The translations under genes were made by a program, and so were the position numbers. A stretch of 64,000 bases of DNA from a virus (Duplodnaviria > Heunggongvirae > Uroviricota > Caudoviricetes): the IMG/VR virus record IMGVR_UViG_646311924_000007, positions 32,001-96,000 of that record; one strand, 5' to 3'. Under the pieces are notes generated by a model. That model was not told the origin of the DNA and did not search any database. It saw only the letters and a list, made by a program, of their open reading frames with translations. Positions 1 to 30,240 of the stretch are shown piece after piece (position 1 is the stretch's first letter; every line of letters begins with the position of its first letter).

Positions 1-1138
1 TAAATGGTAGTTTTCTGACCTCTTTATACGAGAATTTCTTGTTCAACTCATTCGGCACCTTCTTAAAGGCAGCCAGGATCATTTCTTCAAGCTCTGACTG
101 GCTTTTATTTGGATGCCACCCTGAAATAAATATCTTATTGATATTCCGAACATTATAAGCACCATCTAATTTCTCTTGCTGGCCTTCGCCCCATGCCTTT
201 ACCCATGACAGTCCCGGGATGTTACGCACCAGAAAATACGTATAGTCCCCGCCCCATACGACCTGATCATCATAGGCAAGGTAATATTGTGCACGATTAC
301 GTGTGATCTCCGTTGTTTCGGCATCGGTACCTGCGGTTATGGGTGTCGTTGTCTTAACTGAAATCAAATTAGCTAAATTAGCCGCAGAATCGACAGGCGT
401 CAGATTTTGGCCAGCAACCAAGGTTATATCTCCGTTGGTGCACCATACCTTAAGTGTAATGGTCGAGCCTTCTGGCGGTATTTGCCCAATTAGCCCATCA
501 CCGAATCGAACCCCCAACTGCTCGGATGGTTTATAAAACTCAACGTAGACCTGGCTTTTACTTCCGGCTAACCGGAACATAGTGCTGGAAGACCACTGCG
601 TGGTCTTACCATCGGTCGTCACGAATACTTCCAGCTTATAGCAAACAGCAGTGAGAGCCTTTGATAACACGACTTCCAGAAATTCTTTAGCTGCCGTAAC
701 GGTATATGTCACCTCCTGGATTTCCAACTGTGCCACTTCTACCGTACCGGTGCCGTCAACCAACCTGCATACATCCATAGTCATGTAAGGATACTGGTCG
801 TCAGATATTAAAGGCATGTTTTTGGGGATTACCGCTGGGGCATCTTCACTTGTGGCGGTGATCTCAATCATCCCCGATGACGGTGTTGGCTTGGTACCAA
901 CGTAACTATTCGTTTCTGCCGCTGCCAGGATAGAAGAACGCCGCGTCGCGGTCGATATAAAGCCTTCAGCCAGCGCCGCATCGGCATACTGAAAGCACCT
1001 GTAGACAATCTGGGTAATAAACAATGTCAGCATCGAGACAAATTGAGAGCCGACAAACTTCGACCAGAATGAATCTTTCTCGACAAGCTCTTCAAACTCT
1101 GCACGAATACTGTCTTTAGTAGGTGTTGTTTTACTCAT
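1..1138 (-). CDS. phage baseplate/tail structural protein (J/gp6-like?), N-terminal part; gene runs off window start
   Basis: ATG at 1138-1136 overlaps the TGA of the upstream gene (ATGA); frame stays open to position 1. Family assigned from position in tail module only. Confidence 0.4.
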   Translation of the reverse strand, partial: MSKTTPTKDSIRAEFEELVEKDSFWSKFVGSQFVSMLTLFITQIVYRCFQYADAALAEGFISTATRRSSILAAAETNSYVGTKPTPSSGMIEITATSEDAPAVIPKNMPLISDDQYPYMTMDVCRLVDGTGTVEVAQLEIQEVTYTVTAAKEFLEVVLSKALTAVCYKLEVFVTTDGKTTQWSSSTMFRLAGSKSQVYVEFYKPSEQLGVRFGDGLIGQIPPEGSTITLKVWCTNGDITLVAGQNLTPVDSAANLANLISVKTTTPITAGTDAETTEITRNRAQYYLAYDDQVVWGGDYTYFLVRNIPGLSWVKAWGEGQQEKLDGAYNVRNINKIFISGWHPNKSQSELEEMILAAFKKVPNELNKKFSYKEVRKLPF

Positions 1139-1494
1139 AGCACCACGTCCTGTGTGATAGTTATATCCCTGATACGAATGGATATTTTCAACTTATCAAA
1201 AGCATCTCCCTCGGCTACTGACAAGCCAGAAATCGGTATGTCGGGTAAATCTACCGTCAGTTTTTGCAAAAGCATTGCCTCAACCGCAATTTGAACATGC
1301 GACAAGTTGGTCGGTTCGTGTTTAAACTGCGGTAAAACATTGCCCCATGACGGATCTCCGTATACCTCACCCTGATAAGTGTTTAGCCACTCATATAAAC
1401 GAGCGCCCCAGGCCTCCTCCTGGGACTCATACGTTTTTACGCCGGATAACTCCAGCGTCAGCAAAGGATCAATTTCGTTATTGTTGGCCATCAA
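1135..1494 (-). CDS. baseplate wedge protein (GpW/gp25-like)
   Basis: 119-aa ORF translationally coupled to both neighbours; size and the L.TY.GE..GDP.WG..LP motif resemble gp25/GpW-type proteins. Confidence 0.45.
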   Translation of the reverse strand: MMANNNEIDPLLTLELSGVKTYESQEEAWGARLYEWLNTYQGEVYGDPSWGNVLPQFKHEPTNLSHVQIAVEAMLLQKLTVDLPDIPISGLSVAEGDAFDKLKISIRIRDITITQDVVL

Positions 1495-4400
1495 TCAACT
1501 CTCGCGTAGTCATTCATCAACGGATCATCAATTGACAGTGGTACCGTGCGCATAACGCCCGGCTGAGGCGTGCTGACCTTTACGACAGTTCCCTGGCCTT
1601 TCGCCGAGTCTTTGGTGTGCTCTTCAATCCTGGCAAGCAATGAGGTCATCTGCGCAAACAGCCGCTTCGTTTCACCATCAAGTGAAACGGTATTATCAGC
1701 CAACTGCATTGTCGGCTTGGCACCGGAACCGCCAAGGTCACTAATAACCTGCCCGTCTATCTGCATACGACCGGTTGGTTGCTGCAAATCGTTGGCGGCA
1801 GTCGTCACCTGGGACGTGGAGGCTGGTTCAGGCGCATTATTTTTCCGCATCCCCGGCGAGTTGCGGAGTTTATCGAATAGTCCATCAATCCCCATTTGTG
1901 CGCCGAGCTGGTCAAAGTAACTTGAGTTGTTGGCCACCGGACGCGCCTCTTCAACTGGCATCGGGGTATCAACATACACATTGCCAGCTGCTGTTGCGGT
2001 CCCCTTCCCTCGTGCACGTTCTTCTAGCGTTCCCTGAACGACTTCCCGACGCATCCCCCGGCCATTCATGAATTTGTTGACCAGATCGTTAACGCCAACA
2101 GCATTGCCGATTTTGTCTACCAAACCGCCTTTCTCAAACGGGCTATCACCAGGGGTAAACGCCAGACCAGTAGACTGATCGATAACGGCGTTATCAGGTA
2201 GTGGTTCCCTCACTCCATATTGCGCCCCACCCTGTGCTCCTGCCCCAGGTGTATAGATTTCACCACCTAAATAGCGAGCACGATGAGTATTGACCTTGAT
2301 CGCGTACTCACGGTTTTCCTTCGATAAGTCACCGGTGCCTTTTTTCCACTTATTAATAGTGCCAAACCCAGCGTTATATGCAGTGATGGCCTCGTTTAAG
2401 TCTCCATTGGCTTGCTTCAGATACTTGCTCATGAGAAGAGCCGCAGCTTCTGCCGATTTCACAGGATCAAACGATTCACCTTCAGCTAAGCCAGTCTCTT
2501 CACGAGCAATGCCCGTGAACTGAAACATTCCTAGAGCACCAGTTTGTGATTTTGCGTACGGATTACCACCAGATTCAGTTGCAGCAATCGCGTAAAGAGT
2601 GCCTTCAGGAAGACCATATTTATTCTCCAGTTCAGCAAAATACGGAGCTAACTTATCGAGATTTGCCTTACCTTCAGCGCCAAGGCTTCCGACTTTTACA
2701 TCTAAGTTGCCATTATTGTAGGTATCAGCAGCTTTCTGAATGTCATTCCTGGTGCCGGTGGTATTACGCGACGATGATGACGAGCTATTTTGTCCAATAG
2801 CTGAATCAATTTTCCGCACCGCGCTATTGCCCGTTTCTACGGCATTTGCATTGATAATCTGATTGGCAGTTTCTTTAACTGTTTTATTGCTATCTTTCGC
2901 CGTGTCCAGTGCCGCATTTATCACGCGGGTAGCAATATTAGTCTGTTTAGCATCGGATTCAGTTTTAGAATCAGATGTCTCCTGGTGGCTATTAACCGGA
3001 GCTTTTAACTCTGGAGTGATTTCTTTTGCATTAGCCTCGCCGATCGGATTGGGTATTTTTGATACAATCATTGCCGCAGGGGTATTTTTAACGGCATCAA
3101 CCGCTGCATCTAATGCTTTACCGGGTAAATTTTTAACCCCATCCCAAATATTACCAGCCGCCTCTTTAATGTGTTTTCCTGGGTTCTTAATGAAGTCAAT
3201 TGCACTATCAATTGCATCACTGAAAACCTGTTTCAGGTTATCGACAGTAAAGAAGTCTTTTATGGCATCCAGCTTTTCAAGCAACTTATTAGATGTATCG
3301 CTAAACCATGCTGAAACAGCATCACCAATCTTTGCTGTGTAATCATCGAACTTGGTAGAAATGGTGTCGCCAAGGTTAGAAATATATGTTTCTAAGTTGG
3401 TAACCCCACTATCAATGGCCTGGGCAATACTTTCCGTCGAAAATGATTGCAACATATTGCCGATATCCTCAAATCCAAGTGATTTGAGAACATCACCAAT
3501 AGCACTGCTAATACCAGATACCAGTCCCCCCATATCGAGAACATTGGCTAACGTATAAGCGGCTTTTTGCTGGAATGATGGATCTTGTCCTGATTTAAGC
3601 CCAAACGCTCGACGTTGCGCTTCTGTATCATTCCAACCGGTTACCGCATCATAAATACCTCCAGCCACTGTGCCGACTAGGGGAATTGCGCGTAACGCCC
3701 CTTTACCAACTGCCTTTAATCCAAGTTTACCTGCTGCCCGGGCAGCCAAATCTCCGCCTTCATGGGCGAGAGTCTTCTTGCCACCACCGCGTAGCATTCC
3801 TACAAGTTTCTTTGCCCCCAGAGCGCCAAAAGCGAGTGCTCCAGCTTTTTTCAGCATGCCACGCCCCATTAACAACGACGCGACGCCACCGGCCCCCTTC
3901 CCTAACAGGCTAAATAGTTTGGACAGCAAGCCGCCCTTCTTTTTACCGGTGTTTTTGGCTATCTGATCAAGGGCGCGGAGAATCTTGTCATTGCCCTCTT
4001 TAATTTCGCTGGTCTGCTCCTGAAGTTCCTGAACCGTCCGTTTTTGGGTGTTAACCTGAACGACATCGGCACTATTTTGCGATTTACGCCTAAAAAAACC
4101 TTTTCTACGGCTGTTATCGTCATTGCCACGAATCACATCGGCAATAGACTTTCTGGCACCATTAAGCGATCCACCAACTTCTTTTGATATCCCGCCAAGC
4201 TCCTTCCCTGCTGCCCACAATGGACCAGCAACGGCATAACCTAACGCATCGACAGCACGAGTCTCTGAAGGGTTGCCTATGCCTTCAGCTACTTTTGACA
4301 GTTTTTTTAATAAACCTGATTCAGCATTTAGACGCTCATCATCCTCTTTGCGCCTGGCCTTTTCAGCACGTTCAGCACGGGCATCTTCCGCTGCGGCCTT

Positions 4401-25383: not shown

Positions 25384-26281
25384 GCACTGGAAAAACATTA
25401 CTATTTATAAACTTTCTCGTGAGGCGGATCTGACCGACTTAGAAGATAAAAAGAAAATGATCCTTTTCACGCCATGCGGTAGTCAGGATATGGCCAAGTT
25501 CGGTTTTGTATCGCCATTTGGTGATAATTCTGAAGTTATCGCTATGCATGGAAATGGTTTTATCCTTGTTGAAGCAAAGCGCGAAACAAAAATTCTTCCC
25601 CCGCCGGTTATCCAGCGAGCTATTCAAGAAAAAATTGAAAAACTTGAGCAAGAACAAGCGCGTAAACTGAAGAAAACAGAGAAGGACTCCCTGAAAGACG
25701 AAGTTCTGCATTCTCTTCTGCCACGGGCTTTTTCAAAGTTTTCTGTTATCCAGGCGATCTACGACGGTTCAACTAAACGTATCTATATCAATGCCAGCGC
25801 GCGGCAGGCAGAGGATATGCTCGCGCTTATGCGTAAGTCTCTGGGTTCTCTTCCTGCTGTTCCCCTGAGTGTTGAAAATCCCATTGAATTAACGCTGACC
25901 GACTGGGTACGTGATGGTAGTGCTCCACAGGGATTTCAAATGGGGGATGCGGCAGAACTTAAGGCAGTGCTTGAGGATGGCGGTATTGCCCGAGTGAAAA
26001 AGCAGGATTTGGGAAGCGATGAAATTTCCACACACCTGGAAGCTGGCAAGCTCGTCACTAAGTTGGCACTCGACTGGCAGAACCGCATTAAATTTACACT
26101 GGACCATAACTTCAGCCTTACCAGCGTCAAATTTGCGGATGAATTGCTTGAGCAGAACTCTGATATTGATAGTGAAGATGTTGCGCAGCGACTGGACGCA
26201 GATTTCTTCCTGTTGACCAGTGAAATTTCGTGCCTGGTTGATGCTCTGGTAAATGCCCTTGGCGGAGAGGCTAAGCAGTGA
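25376..26281 (+). CDS. hrdC: RdgC-like recombination-associated protein
   Basis: 302 aa from ATG 25376; long identity runs to E. coli RdgC as recalled ([45 protein letters not shown]). Confidence 0.85.
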
Positions 26282-29200
26282 AAGAGCTGTGCTATGGATC
26301 TGTTTGCAGTGGAATTGAAGCCGCGAGTATTGCCTGGGAACCGTTGGGTATGCGTCCGGCGTGGTTTGCTGAAATCGAGCCTTTTCCATCGGCCGTTCTT
26401 GCGCTCCGCTGGCCCCATGTTGCCAACCTTGGCGACATGAAAAAACTTGCCAAAAAAGTCTTGGCTGGGGAAATCGAATCCCCTGACGTGCTCGTCGGGG
26501 GAACACCATGTTTTACCGCGGGGCATATGGTTCTTTGTAAAAATGGCTATAAACCAATAGAAAATGTTTGCCCTGGTGATTACGTAGTCAGTCATCTCGG
26601 GCGGTTACAACAAGTAAAAAGAGTTGGTTCAAAAATAGCTAATACGGGGTTACTTAATGCCGTTGGGCAGCCTTTAGGTATAAGAACAACCAATGACCAT
26701 CCCTTCCTGGCTGTTCGGTGGAAAGCCCAAAACACCCGGAAAAATGGCACATATTTTAAGAGAGAGTTGTTGTCTGAACCGGAATGGCGAGCAGCATGTG
26801 ATATGCCGGGATATCAATGGTGCGCTCTAACTAATTTCAATATTGCATTTCCAGATATTTGTTCTCGGTTCTTGTCTGAAGAACAGGCTATGTATCTTGC
26901 GGGCGCTTATGTTGGCGATGGATATATTAGGAGATGGAGAGGTAAATCTAAGAAGGCGGTTGTTTTTGGCATAAATTGCCAGAAATTGAGAAAGTTTCAT
27001 TGCCGCATACCAGAAAACATATTTTCCGTGGCAAGCGAAATCCGAGGGAGCATCAAAGTAACCTTGAATGATACGTGTTATGCCAATTGGCTTAATGAAC
27101 ATTTTGGCGAGTTAAGCCATGCTAAGCGTATCCCTGCATGGGTGATGTCGCATCCATTGCGTCATGTGTTTTTACAAGGCTATCTTGATACTGATGGGAC
27201 ACCAAGTGGTAAAGCGGGATTTAGAATTAATAGTGTTAGTTCTGCGCTTGCTTGGGGCGTTGCGGGGTTGTCACAGACTTGTGGTTATGTTTCTTCGGTC
27301 AGCTTTATTGAAGTTGAGCCCAAAAAAGTGATCGAGGATCGCGTGGTAAATCAACGGAATTATTATCAGGTAACAATCTGCCCGCAGAAATTGTCACGTA
27401 AATCAAGATTGGCTCATGGAATGCTTTTACGAACAGTCAAAGAGTTTAAATCGGTAGGCCTAGATACTGTATACAACATAGAAGTCGAAGGTGATCATTC
27501 CTATATCCTCAATGGTGCGGTGGTCCATAACTGTCAGGCATTCAGTATCGCGGGATTACGTGGTGGGCTTGATGATGAGCGTGGCGCGCTAACTTTAAAG
27601 TATGTGGAGCTTGCAAATGCAATTGACGACAAACGGGCTGAGTCATTTCTCAAACCAGCCGTTATCGTCTGGGAAAATGTCCCAGGAGTCTTGTCATCGG
27701 CAGATAACGCCTTCGGATGTTTCCTTGCCGGATTGGCTGGAGAAGATGTGCCATTTGAACCAGGTGATCGACCTGAATCAGGAAAAAGCAACGCGTTCTG
27801 GCGGTGGGATGGCAAAACCGGTTGCCATGTTCCAAAGTGGCCGCAGTGTGGTTGTATTTATGGACCGCAGCGAAAAGTGGCCTGGAGAATCCTTGATGCC
27901 CAATACTTCGGAGTGGCACAACGACGCCGACGCGTGTTTGTTGTCGCAAGTGCTCGAACAGATCTCGATCCCGCAACGGTACTTTTTGAGTTCGAAGGCG
28001 TGCGCCGGAATATTGCGCCGAGCAGAGGCGAGGGGAAGGAAACTACCAGATATACTTCAAACATCGCTATCAGAACTTGCGATGATACAAACATAATTGC
28101 CATGGCACATGGGCAAGGAGGGGCTGAGATAAAAACCGATAATTCGGCACCAACTTTGACATGTAACCATGAAGCACCAATTGTATTGCTCGGCGACGGT
28201 AGAATGCGCCGTCTTACCCCTGTCGAATGTGAAAGGCTGCAAGGTTTTCCTGATTGGCATACGTTGATCCCTACGGAAAAGCGTAAAAAAGTTAATTCAG
28301 ATGAACTGGCATATCTGCACAATCACTATCCAGATTTAAGCGAAGAAGAGGCCGCAATGCTTGCAGCTGACGGACCGCGTTACAAAGCGATCGGCAATAG
28401 TATGGCAATACCAGTAATGCGCTGGATTGGCGATCGGATTACTAAGGCCGTATGTCGGCAGAAAGAAGGAAGTGAAACAAAAGAGCGAAAAGTTAAACCA
28501 GCGGCAGAATTCGAACGGTCCATATTCAAATGGGCTGGTGGAAAATTTGGTGTTCTGGAACAAATCTTTCGCTATTTGCCAGAAGGGAAGCGCCTGATTG
28601 AACCTTTCGTTGGTGGCGGAGCTGTCTTCATGAATGCCGGATACCAGGAAAATCTGCTAAATGATGTGAATGCTGACCTGATTAACTTTTACAAGACTCT
28701 GCAACGCGAGGCGCATTCACTTATCACTCTGGCACATCGTTTCTTCCAGGACTACAACACACAGGAAGGATACCTGGCAGTACGGAATGCGTTTAACAAA
28801 CAAGTCTATGATGATTTACATCGCGCAGCGGCGTTTTTGTTCCTGAACCGACATTGTTTTAACGGATTGACGCGTTACAACCAGGCCGGTGAGTTCAATG
28901 TCGGTTATGGGAAGTATAAAACTCCGTATTTCCCATTACAGGAGATGGAAGCCTTCCTCGGTGCGGAAGGGCGGTCTGAGTTTGTATGCGGTGATTTTGC
29001 AGCGGTGATTGAAGCTGCCGGAGAAGGAGATGTCATCTTTTGCGATCCGCCGTATGAACCGCTTCCAAATACAGAGGGATTCACGAACTATTCCGGTCAT
29101 GACTTTAAGTTTGAAGAGCAAAAACGCCTGGTGTCTCTGTTGACGGATGCTCATCGTCGAGGTGCAAAGGTTCTCATTACTAACAGTGGCGCGCCAAACA

Positions 29201-29319
29201 TCAGAGAGCTTTATCATGACAGTGGCTTCAGAGTGGAACCTCTTTTTGCCAGACGTTCTGTGTCTTGTAAGGGGGACACTCGAGGTGTAGCTCATGACGT
29301 TTTGGGTATATTGCTCTAA
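26278..29319 (+). CDS. dmt: bifunctional DNA methyltransferase Dmt (C5-cytosine MTase plus Dam-like N6-adenine MTase) carrying an intein
   Basis: GTG start overlapping hrdC stop; C5 motifs IV ([12 protein letters not shown], split), VI (ENV), IX ([16 protein letters not shown]), X (GNSMAIPV); Dam-like FKWAGGK and DPPY in C-terminal half. Confidence 0.85.
26509..27531 (+). mobile_element. intein with LAGLIDADG homing-endonuclease domain (341 aa) inside dmt
   Basis: Starts Cys (CFTAGHMVL), block B TTNDHPF, two LAGLIDADG motifs ([22 protein letters not shown]), ends [16 protein letters not shown] then +1 Cys; removal rejoins GGTP and CQAFSIAG. Confidence 0.8.
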
Positions 29320-29326
29320 TAAATTT
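29310..29326 (+). promoter_or_regulatory. C1 operator, perfect consensus ATTGCTCTAATAAATTT
   Basis: 17/17 match; overlaps last codons and TAA stop of dmt, upstream of tRNA/plp/ban region. Confidence 0.7.
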
Positions 29327-29500
29327 ATTAGTGTAATATCACCTCAATGAATCGTGATTTATAGAGCGATTTAGCTGTTAGCCGCGACAGGCGCGGCGGT
29401 AAGCATGGCTGGGCCTAGTCCTCCCAGACAAACCACCGAGTTGCCAGGTTGACCATGCGCCTAAGTGGCAACGCCGAAGTGCGTTACGAGCGTCCAGTTT

Positions 29501-29527
29501 GCCCATCTTCGGGTGGGCGTTTTTTTC
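29501..29527 (+). terminator. rho-independent terminator
   Basis: Hairpin GCCCATC-TTCG-GGTGGGC followed by TTTTTTT. Confidence 0.55.
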
Positions 29528-29991
29528 AGGGTTTTCGTCATGGTTAGCGACTTTGCGGCGGTTTAGAAACTGACCATTAAAGTAAATGCAAACGATGATC
29601 TGATGATGGTAGCGGCCTAAGAAGCCAGATGCCATGGGGTATGAGTCGTCCCCCGTCAAAAAATCGACCGCAGAGTGTCCCCGTCTGTGTATTAGGGAAC
29701 GGGGAGGCACAACAGGTAAGGGCGCTGGTGTGATTAACCAGATGAACGAGAAGGGGCCATCTGTTGGTCAGCGTCCTTTCCTGTTGCGTTTTCTTTTCAG
29801 CGTAACAGCGGTGCTTAACAGCACTTTGGGTACAGTTCCACGAATTTACGGGTATATCCCGTCATGCTGAAGGCGCTAATCACGCTGGAAGCCAGGGTTA
29901 TGCATCCCCTGTTACCGAATTGCAGCCAGGGCGCGGTGCGCCGAAAAGCATACGGAGGTGGAAGCCCTCGCCGGAGACGTACCCGGCAAGT

Positions 29992-30066
29992 GATGGTGTA
30001 GCTCAGCGGTAGAGCAGTTGGCTGTTAACCAACTGGTCGGTAGTTCGAATCCACCCACCATCGCCA
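29992..30066 (+). tRNA. tRNA-Asn (anticodon GUU)
   Basis: Hand-folded cloverleaf: acceptor GATGGTG/CACCATC, anticodon loop CTGTTAA, T-loop TTCGAAT, discriminator G, encoded CCA. Confidence 0.75.
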
Positions 30067-30071
30067 CTTTA

Positions 30072-30158
30072 GGGGAGTTAGTCCGTAGGGGTAGCGGGGT
30101 AGACTGTAAATCTACTGTCATTGCGACTCGGGTGGTTCGACTCCATCACTCCCCACCA
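30072..30158 (+). tRNA. class-II tRNA-like gene, anticodon GUA (Tyr-like)
   Basis: Acceptor GGGGAGT/ACTCCCC, anticodon arm GTAGA-CTGTAAA-TCTAC identical in loop to E. coli tRNA-Tyr as recalled, long variable arm, encoded CCA; D-arm region slightly irregular. Confidence 0.55.
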
Positions 30159-30162
30159 CATT

Positions 30163-30238
30163 GCCGATTTAGCTCAGTTGGTAGAGCAGTCGCTTTGTAA
30201 GCGAATGGTCAGCGGTTCGATCCCGTTAATCGGCACCA
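30163..30238 (+). tRNA. tRNA-Thr (anticodon UGU)
   Basis: Acceptor GCCGATT/AATCGGC, D-arm TAGCTCAGTTGGTAGAGC, anticodon loop TTTGTAA, T-loop TTCGATC, encoded CCA. Confidence 0.7.
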
Positions 30239-30240
30239 AC

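Follow-up and report, generated by a model that had tools for sequence, protein, structure and literature searches.

A tRNA cassette with a class II tRNA-Tyr gene in the ban operon of a P1-like phage-plasmid

The ban operon of a P1-like phage-plasmid carries a block of three tRNA genes, Asn-Tyr-Thr, which is a swapped cassette in a combinatorial locus of tRNA and accessory genes. No paper that describes such an exchange was found. The tRNA-Tyr gene in the middle of the block is itself already known: it is a common, annotated member of a known phage family. The DNA analysed here, called the window, is a stretch of 64,000 nucleotides from a viral record (IMGVR_UViG_646311924_000007). Judged by its sequence, it is a P1-like phage-plasmid of a lineage that is common in STEC and cattle isolates.

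By combining the evidence set out below, it is possible to propose one explanation for the gene. A functional tRNA-Tyr would have been brought in by the block swap, would be expressed with the ban operon, and would supplement the tRNA-Tyr pool of the cell against host defences. We give this explanation, taken as a whole, an even chance of being correct.

tRNA genes and the ban operon

Four tRNA genes, all on the plus strand, are found by ARAGORN in the whole window, and all four exceed the gathering score of the Rfam family RF00005, which is 29. Three of them form the array. These are tRNA-Asn(GTT) at positions 29992-30066 (+ strand, 69.9 bits), the class II tRNA-Tyr(GTA) gene of 87 nt at 30072-30158 (+ strand, 41.9 bits, E = 1.6e-6) and tRNA-Thr(TGT) at 30163-30238 (+ strand, 67.8 bits). 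The CCA end is encoded in both tRNA-Asn and tRNA-Thr, and the T stem of tRNA-Asn contains one A.C mismatch. The block is 247 nt long, with spacers of 5 nt and 4 nt between the genes. The fourth gene, tRNA(CAT) at 32184-32259 (+ strand, 64.7 bits), is the last tRNA gene of the operon and is a tRNA-Ile2 of the lysidine type. It is identical to P1 trnI in 76/76 positions. The P1 gene is annotated as tRNA-Ile2, 89% identical to ileX, and its homologues are labelled tRNA-Ile by PGAP. The presence of the Asn-Tyr-Thr array together with tRNA(CAT) is thus confirmed. The initial annotation had placed a class II tRNA-Tyr-like gene between Asn and Thr, with coordinates that match those of ARAGORN exactly. 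The fold and the tyrosine identity that it gave to positions 30072-30158 are upheld by the ARAGORN call, Tyr(gta), and by the Rfam score of 41.9 bits, above 29. The anticodon loop CTGTAAA (GUA), the length of 87 nt and the long variable arm can all be read in the sequence as it had described them. The tRNA-Tyr gene is present in the window in a single copy (ARAGORN).

The acceptor stem of tRNA-Tyr has 7 bp (GGGGAGU/ACUCCCC) including G1-C72, and is followed by the discriminator A73 and an encoded CCA. The anticodon loop CUGUAAA has 7 nt and contains U33, the anticodon G34-U35-A36, and A37-A38. The anticodon stem and the T stem have 5 bp each, and the T loop carries GTTCGA. The variable arm, GUCAUUGCGAC, is 11 nt long and bears a stem, GUC/GAC, which is paired to 97.6% in the alignment of homologues and shows one compensatory pair. 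Over the whole cloverleaf, 99.1% of the cells in 14 homologues are paired, versus 45-59% when the partners are slid. Compensatory changes occur in 14 of the 24 pairs, and none of 500 shuffles reaches the observed values. The fold of tRNA-Tyr therefore exceeds chance. Its single-sequence folding energy is not significant (z = -0.67), which is usual for tRNAs.

The D arm departs from the canonical form. The D stem drawn by ARAGORN (G10-C25 and U11-G24 with two mismatches) is paired to only 30.4% in the homologues and was rejected. The stem CCGU/GCGG is paired to 96.4% and has one compensatory variant, CUGU/GCAG. The connector between the acceptor and D stems is 4 nt (UAGU) and not the canonical 2 nt of positions 8-9. 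A 4-nt connector is common to the whole phage tRNA-Tyr family, with 5 nt in CR3, and the connector of host tyrU is canonical. As the T6 tRNA-Tyr, which is active in experiments, has the same connector, this feature is no sign of decay or of a pseudogene. As a further speculation, the 4-nt connector might alter the geometry of the elbow and the variable arm in a way relevant to nuclease recognition.

The identity set of bacterial TyrRS consists of A73, G1-C72 and U35, to which the complete anticodon G34-U35-A36 and the long arm may be added. A73, G1-C72 and U35 are read directly in the sequence of tRNA-Tyr. Where the copies in P1-like and SSU5-like elements differ, the changes affect the D loop, position 26 or the variable loop, or replace a G-U pair by A-U. 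Such differences spare the fold and so indicate purifying selection on it. The 87-nt gene very probably encodes a functional class II tRNA-Tyr(GUA) of the bacterial type.

The operon that holds the tRNA genes starts at Oban (29310..29337, + strand), a divalent operator of the C1 repressor (ATTGCTCTAATAAATTT with its inverted partner ATTACACTAATAAATTT) that overlaps the Pban promoters. This region matches positions 68651-68696 of P1 (NC_005856) in all but 1 downstream base. In the P1 record, Obanab and P1ban/P2ban are annotated at this place, and the tRNAs lie in the ban operon behind them. The record of P7 states that the Oban operator controls tRNA expression. Between Pban and the tRNA genes, a terminator scan detects a terminator-like hairpin with a T-run (29497..29526, + strand) at the end of a dicF-like region; the corresponding stretch of P1 carries the annotation 'dicF-like region'. 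A promoter scan of positions 29000-32600 returned no promoter-like site; as the scan also missed the known Pban, it says nothing on expression.

The stretch 31112..32156, between the tRNA block and tRNA-Ile2, is variable cargo. It contains open reading frames for a small membrane protein (31112-31348, + strand; PHROG 1130, membrane protein, category moron) and for an SPFH/Band_7 lipoprotein (31329-32156, + strand; Pfam Band_7, 9.7e-31; PHROG 200, lipoprotein, category moron). The protein gene of the operon, ban (32534..33904, + strand), is an open reading frame for a DnaB-like replicative helicase and corresponds to P1 ban and to the DNA primase/helicase of MH160767.

The conserved Oban and promoter, together with the P7 record, suggest that the array would be silent or expressed at a low level in the lysogen. 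As part of a C1-repressed operon, it would be transcribed upon induction of the prophage-plasmid or during infection. Read-through of the dicF-like hairpin at 29497-29526 is assumed here. The tRNA-Tyr would then be cut from the polycistronic transcript and charged by the host TyrRS. The 5- and 4-nt spacers and the encoded CCA would fit ordinary processing by RNase P and RNase E.

Origin and distribution of the tRNA block

P1 (NC_005856) annotates trnA (Asn), trnT (Thr) and trnI (Ile2, CAT), in agreement with the three tRNAs that the initial annotation had named for P1. The gap between Asn and Thr is 2 nt, the Asn-Thr block is 154 nt long, and trnI lies further downstream. The arrangement in P7 is the same, with an additional unannotated Ser(TGA). 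The Tyr gene is absent from both arrays in a comparison with NC_005856 and the P7 record. The description of the tRNA-Tyr gene as an extra one holds relative to P1 and P7, but the gene is not an insertion: Asn, Tyr and Thr together form an allele distinct from that of P1.

This is seen in the two neighbours of tRNA-Tyr. The tRNA-Asn gene is identical to that of P1 in 67/76 positions (88%) and to that of the SSU5-like element CMS-2020a in 74/75. For tRNA-Thr, the corresponding values are 68/78 (87%) and 75/76. The differences of both genes from P1 extend throughout the anticodon arms. Thus, tRNA-Asn is the SSU5-like/N4-like allele and tRNA-Thr the SSU5-like allele, and neither is the allele of P1. 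The block as a whole is 98% identical (242/247) to that of CMS-2020a. The flanks are of a different kind: the 300 nt upstream are identical to P1/P7 in 298/300 positions, and the 200 nt downstream to P7 in 193/200. The comparison of alleles rejects a simple insertion of Tyr between the Asn and Thr genes of P1. A block of foreign alleles between P1/P7-like flanks shows instead that the three tRNA genes were exchanged as a cassette.

The breakpoints are located exactly at the edges of the block, where the ends of the tRNA genes are conserved. Homologous recombination at these ends would have replaced the P1-type Asn-Thr pair as a unit. The block probably comes from a pool of tRNA genes common to SSU5-like phage-plasmids and virulent coliphages (rV5-like, T-even and N4-like). 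The elements of the CMS-2020a type are plasmids of ~106-113 kb with genes for a DNA ligase, GrxA and CobT-related proteins, which makes them SSU5-like phage-plasmids. Other arrays are mosaic as well. CP053388 has Asn and Tyr of the window type followed by a P1-type Thr, NZ_CP159120 has Arg(TCT)-Tyr-Thr...Ser...Ile2, and NZ_AP018804 has Arg(TCT)-Thr...Ser...Ile2. These arrays show that the recombination is ongoing.

The closest phage record is that of Escherichia phage vB_EcoM-Ro157c2YLVW (MH160767.1, Punavirus), which matches the array and its surroundings with 100% identity over 801 nt. Its record already annotates the three genes as tRNA-Asn, tRNA-Tyr and tRNA-Thr. The window is not the same element as MH160767.1, since identity over 18 kb amounts to 99.1% and a segment of 82 aa distinguishes the two Dmt methyltransferases. 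The nearest plasmid, NZ_CP028125.1 of E. coli O26, is 99.5% identical. A search of the literature found no paper that mentions Ro157c2YLVW, and none that links tRNA-Tyr with P1-like phage-plasmids.

Among 5426 complete E. coli genomes, 268 (~5%) contain the tRNA-Tyr gene according to blastn, always on plasmids and with 95-100% identity. PGAP names these plasmid copies tRNA-Tyr. As the gene is annotated in these genomes and in MH160767.1, it is not an overlooked feature. No chromosome in the same 5426 genomes gave a blastn match to the gene, and a recent host origin was rejected for this reason. A junction query, made of the P1-type flank, the first tRNA and the start of Tyr, was covered in full in 100 genomes and in part in 738. 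From these counts, ~100 P1-like and ~168 SSU5-like plasmids carry the gene. This corresponds, by rough arithmetic, to ~18% of the P1-like plasmids (~100/~570). Of 737 plasmids matched in PLSDB, 236 have a coverage of at least 80% of the array.

The gene is also widespread among phages. A blastn search with its 87 nt finds 1524 phage records, and at least five families of phages have retained it. In alignments, the identity is 93.1% to Vequintavirus LL12 (rV5-like), 92.0% each to Certrevirus CR3 and Tequatrovirus JB75, 89.7% to T6, and 76-83% to Klebsiella T4-like, T5-like and Felixounavirus phages. It is 63.6% to E. coli tyrU, which gives no blastn match to the gene at E <= 1e-5.

Possible functions of tRNA-Tyr

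tRNA-Tyr is a target of Septu and of the PtuAB effector of Retron-Eco7, and tRNA-Tyr genes of phages neutralise both systems (PMC11555353, PMC12673091, PMC13096335). The initial annotation had named tRNA-Tyr as a target of some retron effectors, which is true of Retron-Eco7 PtuAB (PMC11555353, PMC12673091). It had also referred to phage tRNAs as a known means of counter-defence, and the tRNA-Tyr genes of T6 and T5-like phages are examples of it (PMC13096335, PMC11555353, PMC12673091). Septu EcB88 cuts the variable arm of host tRNA-Tyr at C48/A49 and T6 tRNA-Tyr at C48. Infection in the face of this system is restored by over-expression of T6 tRNA-Tyr or by its SegB-driven amplification. A T6 mutant that has lost its tRNA-rich region shows higher sensitivity, T4 is devoid of a tRNA-Tyr and does not manage to escape, and the wild-type single-copy T6 tRNA-Tyr is insufficient without amplification (PMC13096335). 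The tRNA-Tyr of SP15 neutralises Retron-Eco7, for which it needs a strong promoter and a 14-nt variable loop (PMC11555353, PMC12673091).

The tRNA-Tyr of the window is a homologue of the member that has been validated against Septu, with 89.7% identity to T6 and an identical variable arm. The extended variable loop of the SP15 type is absent from it, its 11-nt arm being of the T6 type. It also keeps the GUCA (UGUCAU) context where Septu and Retron-Eco7 cut host tRNA-Tyr. If the gene has an anti-defence function at all, the T6-type arm and the kept cleavage context point to supplementation or a decoy rather than to resistance. In lytic growth, tRNA-Tyr would enlarge the Tyr pool and so sustain translation under depletion by Septu or Retron-Eco7 PtuAB. 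The molecule would act as a supplement or decoy and not as a cleavage-resistant variant. That such supplementation is the main benefit of the gene seems to us almost, though not quite, an even bet, and it is the likeliest of the functions considered.

Some observations count against the proposed explanation. Most P1-like elements do without the tRNA-Tyr gene. A terminator-like hairpin stands between Pban and the tRNAs, and a scan that also overlooks the known Pban shows no dedicated strong promoter. The kept GUCA context, the cleavage of the identical T6 arm, the insufficiency of T6 tRNA-Tyr in single copy, the lack of an SP15-type loop and the unusual connector weigh in the same direction.

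The anti-defence reading can be widened to the whole locus. Between dmt and ban, P1-like phage-plasmids may possess a modular counter-defence locus subject to recombination, in which the Tyr cassette would serve to evade Septu and Retron-Eco7. This is offered tentatively, and the chances are somewhat against it. Its interchangeable tRNA cassettes would begin with Asn or Arg, continue with an optional Tyr, with Thr and with an optional Ser, and end with Ile2. Together with genes for proteins such as the Tad2-like one, they would be exchanged between P1-like and SSU5-like elements and virulent coliphages. In other P1-like plasmids, a Tad2-like gene (Thoeris anti-defence; PF11195, 4.4e-10 and 1.1e-9) lies directly after tRNA-Ile2. 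Its position in the same intergenic region supports an anti-defence locus a little, by association.

Alternatively, the gene might contribute to translation in general, either by matching the codons of the phage or by offsetting the decay or shut-off of host tRNAs during lysis, with no link to a nuclease. We consider this rather unlikely for tRNA-Tyr. A rough codon count, 65 long ORFs of the window against 41 ORFs of a 50-kb segment of E. coli K-12, shows that the remaining tRNAs of these P1-like arrays read codons that the host seldom uses and that are enriched in the phage. ACA (read by Thr-UGU) is enriched 2.6x, AUA (Ile2) 5.0x, UCA (Ser-UGA) 2.5x and AGA (Arg-UCU) 4.3x. The operon is, furthermore, expressed with replication genes. 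Asn codons (Asn-GUU) stand at 1.15x. Tyr codons (Tyr-GUA) reach only 1.19x overall, with a mild enrichment of UAU (1.33x) and with UAC at 1.02x; one anticodon reads both, and the host has several tyr genes. Moreover, P1 and P7, whose core genes are 97-99% identical to those of the window, have no Tyr gene, and codon demand therefore cannot explain why the gene is present in some elements and absent from others. Even near-identical P1-like genomes differ in this respect, ~100 of ~570 having the gene. Codon supply is a good explanation for Thr, Ile2, Ser and Arg, but a poor one for Tyr.

It is also conceivable, but improbable, that tRNA-Tyr is a neutral passenger, which was carried along when recombination took place at the ends of the Asn and Thr genes and which persists without benefit. 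The donor would have been an SSU5-like phage-plasmid residing in the same cell, or a virulent phage during its infection. Such an origin would agree with the breakpoints at the exact edges of the block, with the combinatorial and mosaic arrays (which begin with Asn or Arg and may include or lack Tyr and Ser) and with the occurrence of the gene in only ~18% of P1-like plasmids. Persistence without benefit is harder to reconcile with a fold that is strictly kept in 268 genomes at 95-100% identity, where all changes are structure-neutral, with the retention of the same gene in at least five phage families, and with the benefit shown experimentally for the T6 homologue (PMC13096335).

Resistance to cleavage is the least probable explanation, and we regard it as very unlikely that the phage Tyr and Asn tRNAs escape nucleases of the colicin E5 or PtuAB type through their differences from host tRNAs. 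Colicin E5 is not a phage defence, and the link to it is weaker than that to Septu and Retron-Eco7. The literature agrees with the initial annotation that tRNA-Asn and tRNA-Tyr are among its targets, which are the Tyr, His, Asn and Asp tRNAs, recognised via a UQU motif (PMC1669751, PMC1635277). The body of tRNA-Tyr is only 63.6% identical to tyrU, its variable loop is 2 nt longer than that of the host, its D-arm connector is unusual, and SP15 tRNA-Tyr does resist Retron-Eco7 via its variable loop (PMC12673091); but the anticodon loop CUGUAAA is that of host tyrU, both phage tRNAs, Tyr and Asn, retain the U33-G34-U35 (UGU) recognised by colicin E5 (PMC1635277), the variable arm matches that of T6, which Septu cuts at C48 (PMC13096335), and there is no long loop of the SP15 type. 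As the UGU motif and the host anticodon loop are kept, nothing in the sequence indicates nuclease resistance, and only replenishment is plausible. The earlier proposal that the array serves counter-defence is plausible in so far as it fits published work on close homologues; its versions based on colicin E5 or on nuclease resistance are unsupported by the sequence.

As things stand, the gain from these results is modest, since tRNA-Tyr is annotated, frequent and part of a known family. Should the Tyr cassette protect its carrier from Septu or retron nucleases, tRNA-based counter-defence would extend from the virulent T-even and T5 phages to temperate phage-plasmids, and the allele of the tRNA array would be a simple marker of host range. 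Through P1-like phage-plasmids, genes for resistance and virulence are spread within E. coli, STEC lineages included.

Comparison with related tRNA arrays and tRNA-Tyr genes

The trnA-trnT-trnI genes of P1 and P7 occupy the same locus as the array of the window, with flanks of 99% identity, the same operator and promoter, and an identical tRNA-Ile2. They differ from it in having no Tyr gene and in their alleles of Asn (88% identical) and Thr (87%). The cargo between Thr and Ile2 is plp/upl/tciABC in P1, and the membrane protein and SPFH lipoprotein genes in the window.

The SSU5-like Asn-Tyr-Thr(-Ser) arrays (CMS-2020a, CP054387; p009_B, NZ_CP048306) have the same order and spacers as the window, and their block is identical in 242/247 positions. 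However, their context of DNA ligase, GrxA and CobT-related genes is unrelated, and the flanks cannot be aligned. The Asn-Ser-Thr array of N4-like phages (Enquatrovirus) likewise consists of Asn, a class II tRNA and Thr. Its spacer lengths are the same and its Asn gene is identical in 71/75 positions, but the class II slot is occupied by Ser(TGA) and not by Tyr.

The host genes are tyrU, tyrT and tyrV of E. coli. They share with the tRNA-Tyr of the window the anticodon loop, G1-C72, A73, a variable arm of class II and the GUCA context of cleavage. Unlike it, tyrU has a canonical connector of 2 nt, a D stem of 3 bp next to a large D loop, and a variable arm of 9 nt, which makes the variable loop of the phage tRNA 2 nt longer.

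The tRNA-Tyr genes of T5-like phages (SP15/T5) also encode a phage class II tRNA-Tyr(GUA) that supplements the host pool. The SP15 tRNA has its own strong promoter and a 14-nt variable loop (G47-C60), 5 nt longer than that of the host, whereas the arm in the window is 11 nt. A representative T5-like tRNA-Tyr is 91 nt long, with 5 bp in its variable stem. The same variable arm as in the tRNA-Tyr of the window is present in a second T5-like type (IrisVonRoten, 79.5% identical).

Another known counterpart is the tRNA-Tyr of T6 (Tequatrovirus; NC_054907, 66468-66554), which is likewise 87 nt long, lies in a tRNA array, is 89.7% identical and has the same variable arm, GUCAUUGCGAC. Its anticodon loop, D stem and 4-nt connector are those of the tRNA-Tyr described here. 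T6, however, is virulent, and its gene adjoins the SegB homing endonuclease and works when amplified. The window, in contrast, represents a temperate phage-plasmid with a single-copy gene in the C1-repressed ban operon and no adjacent homing endonuclease.

Dmt and its intein

The bifunctional methyltransferase Dmt is encoded on the plus strand at 26278-29319, and an intein with a LAGLIDADG endonuclease occupies about residues 77-418 of the protein. The Pfam domains LAGLIDADG_3 (30.2 bits) and Hint_2 (28.2 bits) are flanked by DNA_methylase and MethyltransfD12. Within the C5-cytosine methylase half, the point of insertion falls exactly at the catalytic motif IV (GGTP/CFTAGH...VVHN/CQAFS). Dmt of P1, in contrast, is a protein of 754 aa without an intein.

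The closest phage record, Escherichia phage vB_EcoM-Ro157c2YLVW (MH160767.1), encodes a Dmt of 1095 aa (333-3620 of its locus, L001), compared to 1013 aa in the window. The two proteins are separated by a diverged segment at about residues 585-640, which is 82 aa shorter in the window and is probably where the C5 methylase has its target-recognition region. Because this segment differs, the window belongs to a near relative of the Ro157c2YLVW record and not to the same record.

RNA-like elements around the tRNA block

Between Pban, the C1-controlled promoter(s) of the ban operon, and the tRNA block lies a region on the plus strand (29434-29535) homologous to that annotated in P1 as the 'dicF-like region', and a strong terminator-like hairpin (29497-29526) is found at its end. 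Rfam gives no match to DicF at E <= 1. On the other side of the block, at 30959-31078 of the plus strand, the same database matches the sRNA family STnc100 of Salmonella below threshold, at 38 bits (gathering score 47, E = 9.6e-6); the matched stretch adjoins the genes of the small membrane protein and the SPFH lipoprotein on their upstream side.

Variation in the tRNA arrays

The tRNA at 32184-32259 is called tRNA-Met(cat) both by ARAGORN and in the GenBank record of Ro157c2YLVW. This label is most likely wrong, since the gene is identical at 76 of 76 positions to P1 trnI, a lysidine-type tRNA-Ile2.

The composition of the array varies among P1-like elements. In P7, ARAGORN places a tRNA-Ser(TGA), which carries no annotation in the GenBank record, between tRNA-Thr and terB (2393-2479 of the P7 locus L007, about 72257-72343 of AF503408.1). 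Arg(TCT) opens the array in some P1-like plasmids, as in NZ_CP159120.1 (L020 2553-2629) and NZ_AP018804.1 (L021 462-538); in both, tRNA-Ile2 is followed by a gene of Tad2-like type (Thoeris anti-defence). Arg(TCT) shares its acceptor stem and T arm with tRNA-Asn but differs from it in the D loop and anticodon arm, a sequence pattern that resembles an exchange of the anticodon half.

The T arm of tRNA-Asn in the window (30035-30058) contains an A.C mismatch in its stem (GGTAG/CCACC), which is common to the plasmids that are 100% identical across the array. The tRNA-Asn genes of P1, P7, N4 and the SSU5-like phage-plasmid CMS-2020a have instead a G at the mismatched position.

In the alignment of the tRNA-Tyr homologues (A1), the connector that joins the acceptor stem to the D stem is 4 nt long in every phage tRNA-Tyr of the family, including that of the window (30072-30158), except for the Certrevirus phage CR3, where it is 5 nt. 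Judged by eye, the first extra base of the connector co-varies loosely with position 26. The phage connectors are longer than that of host tyrU, which has the canonical 2 nt.
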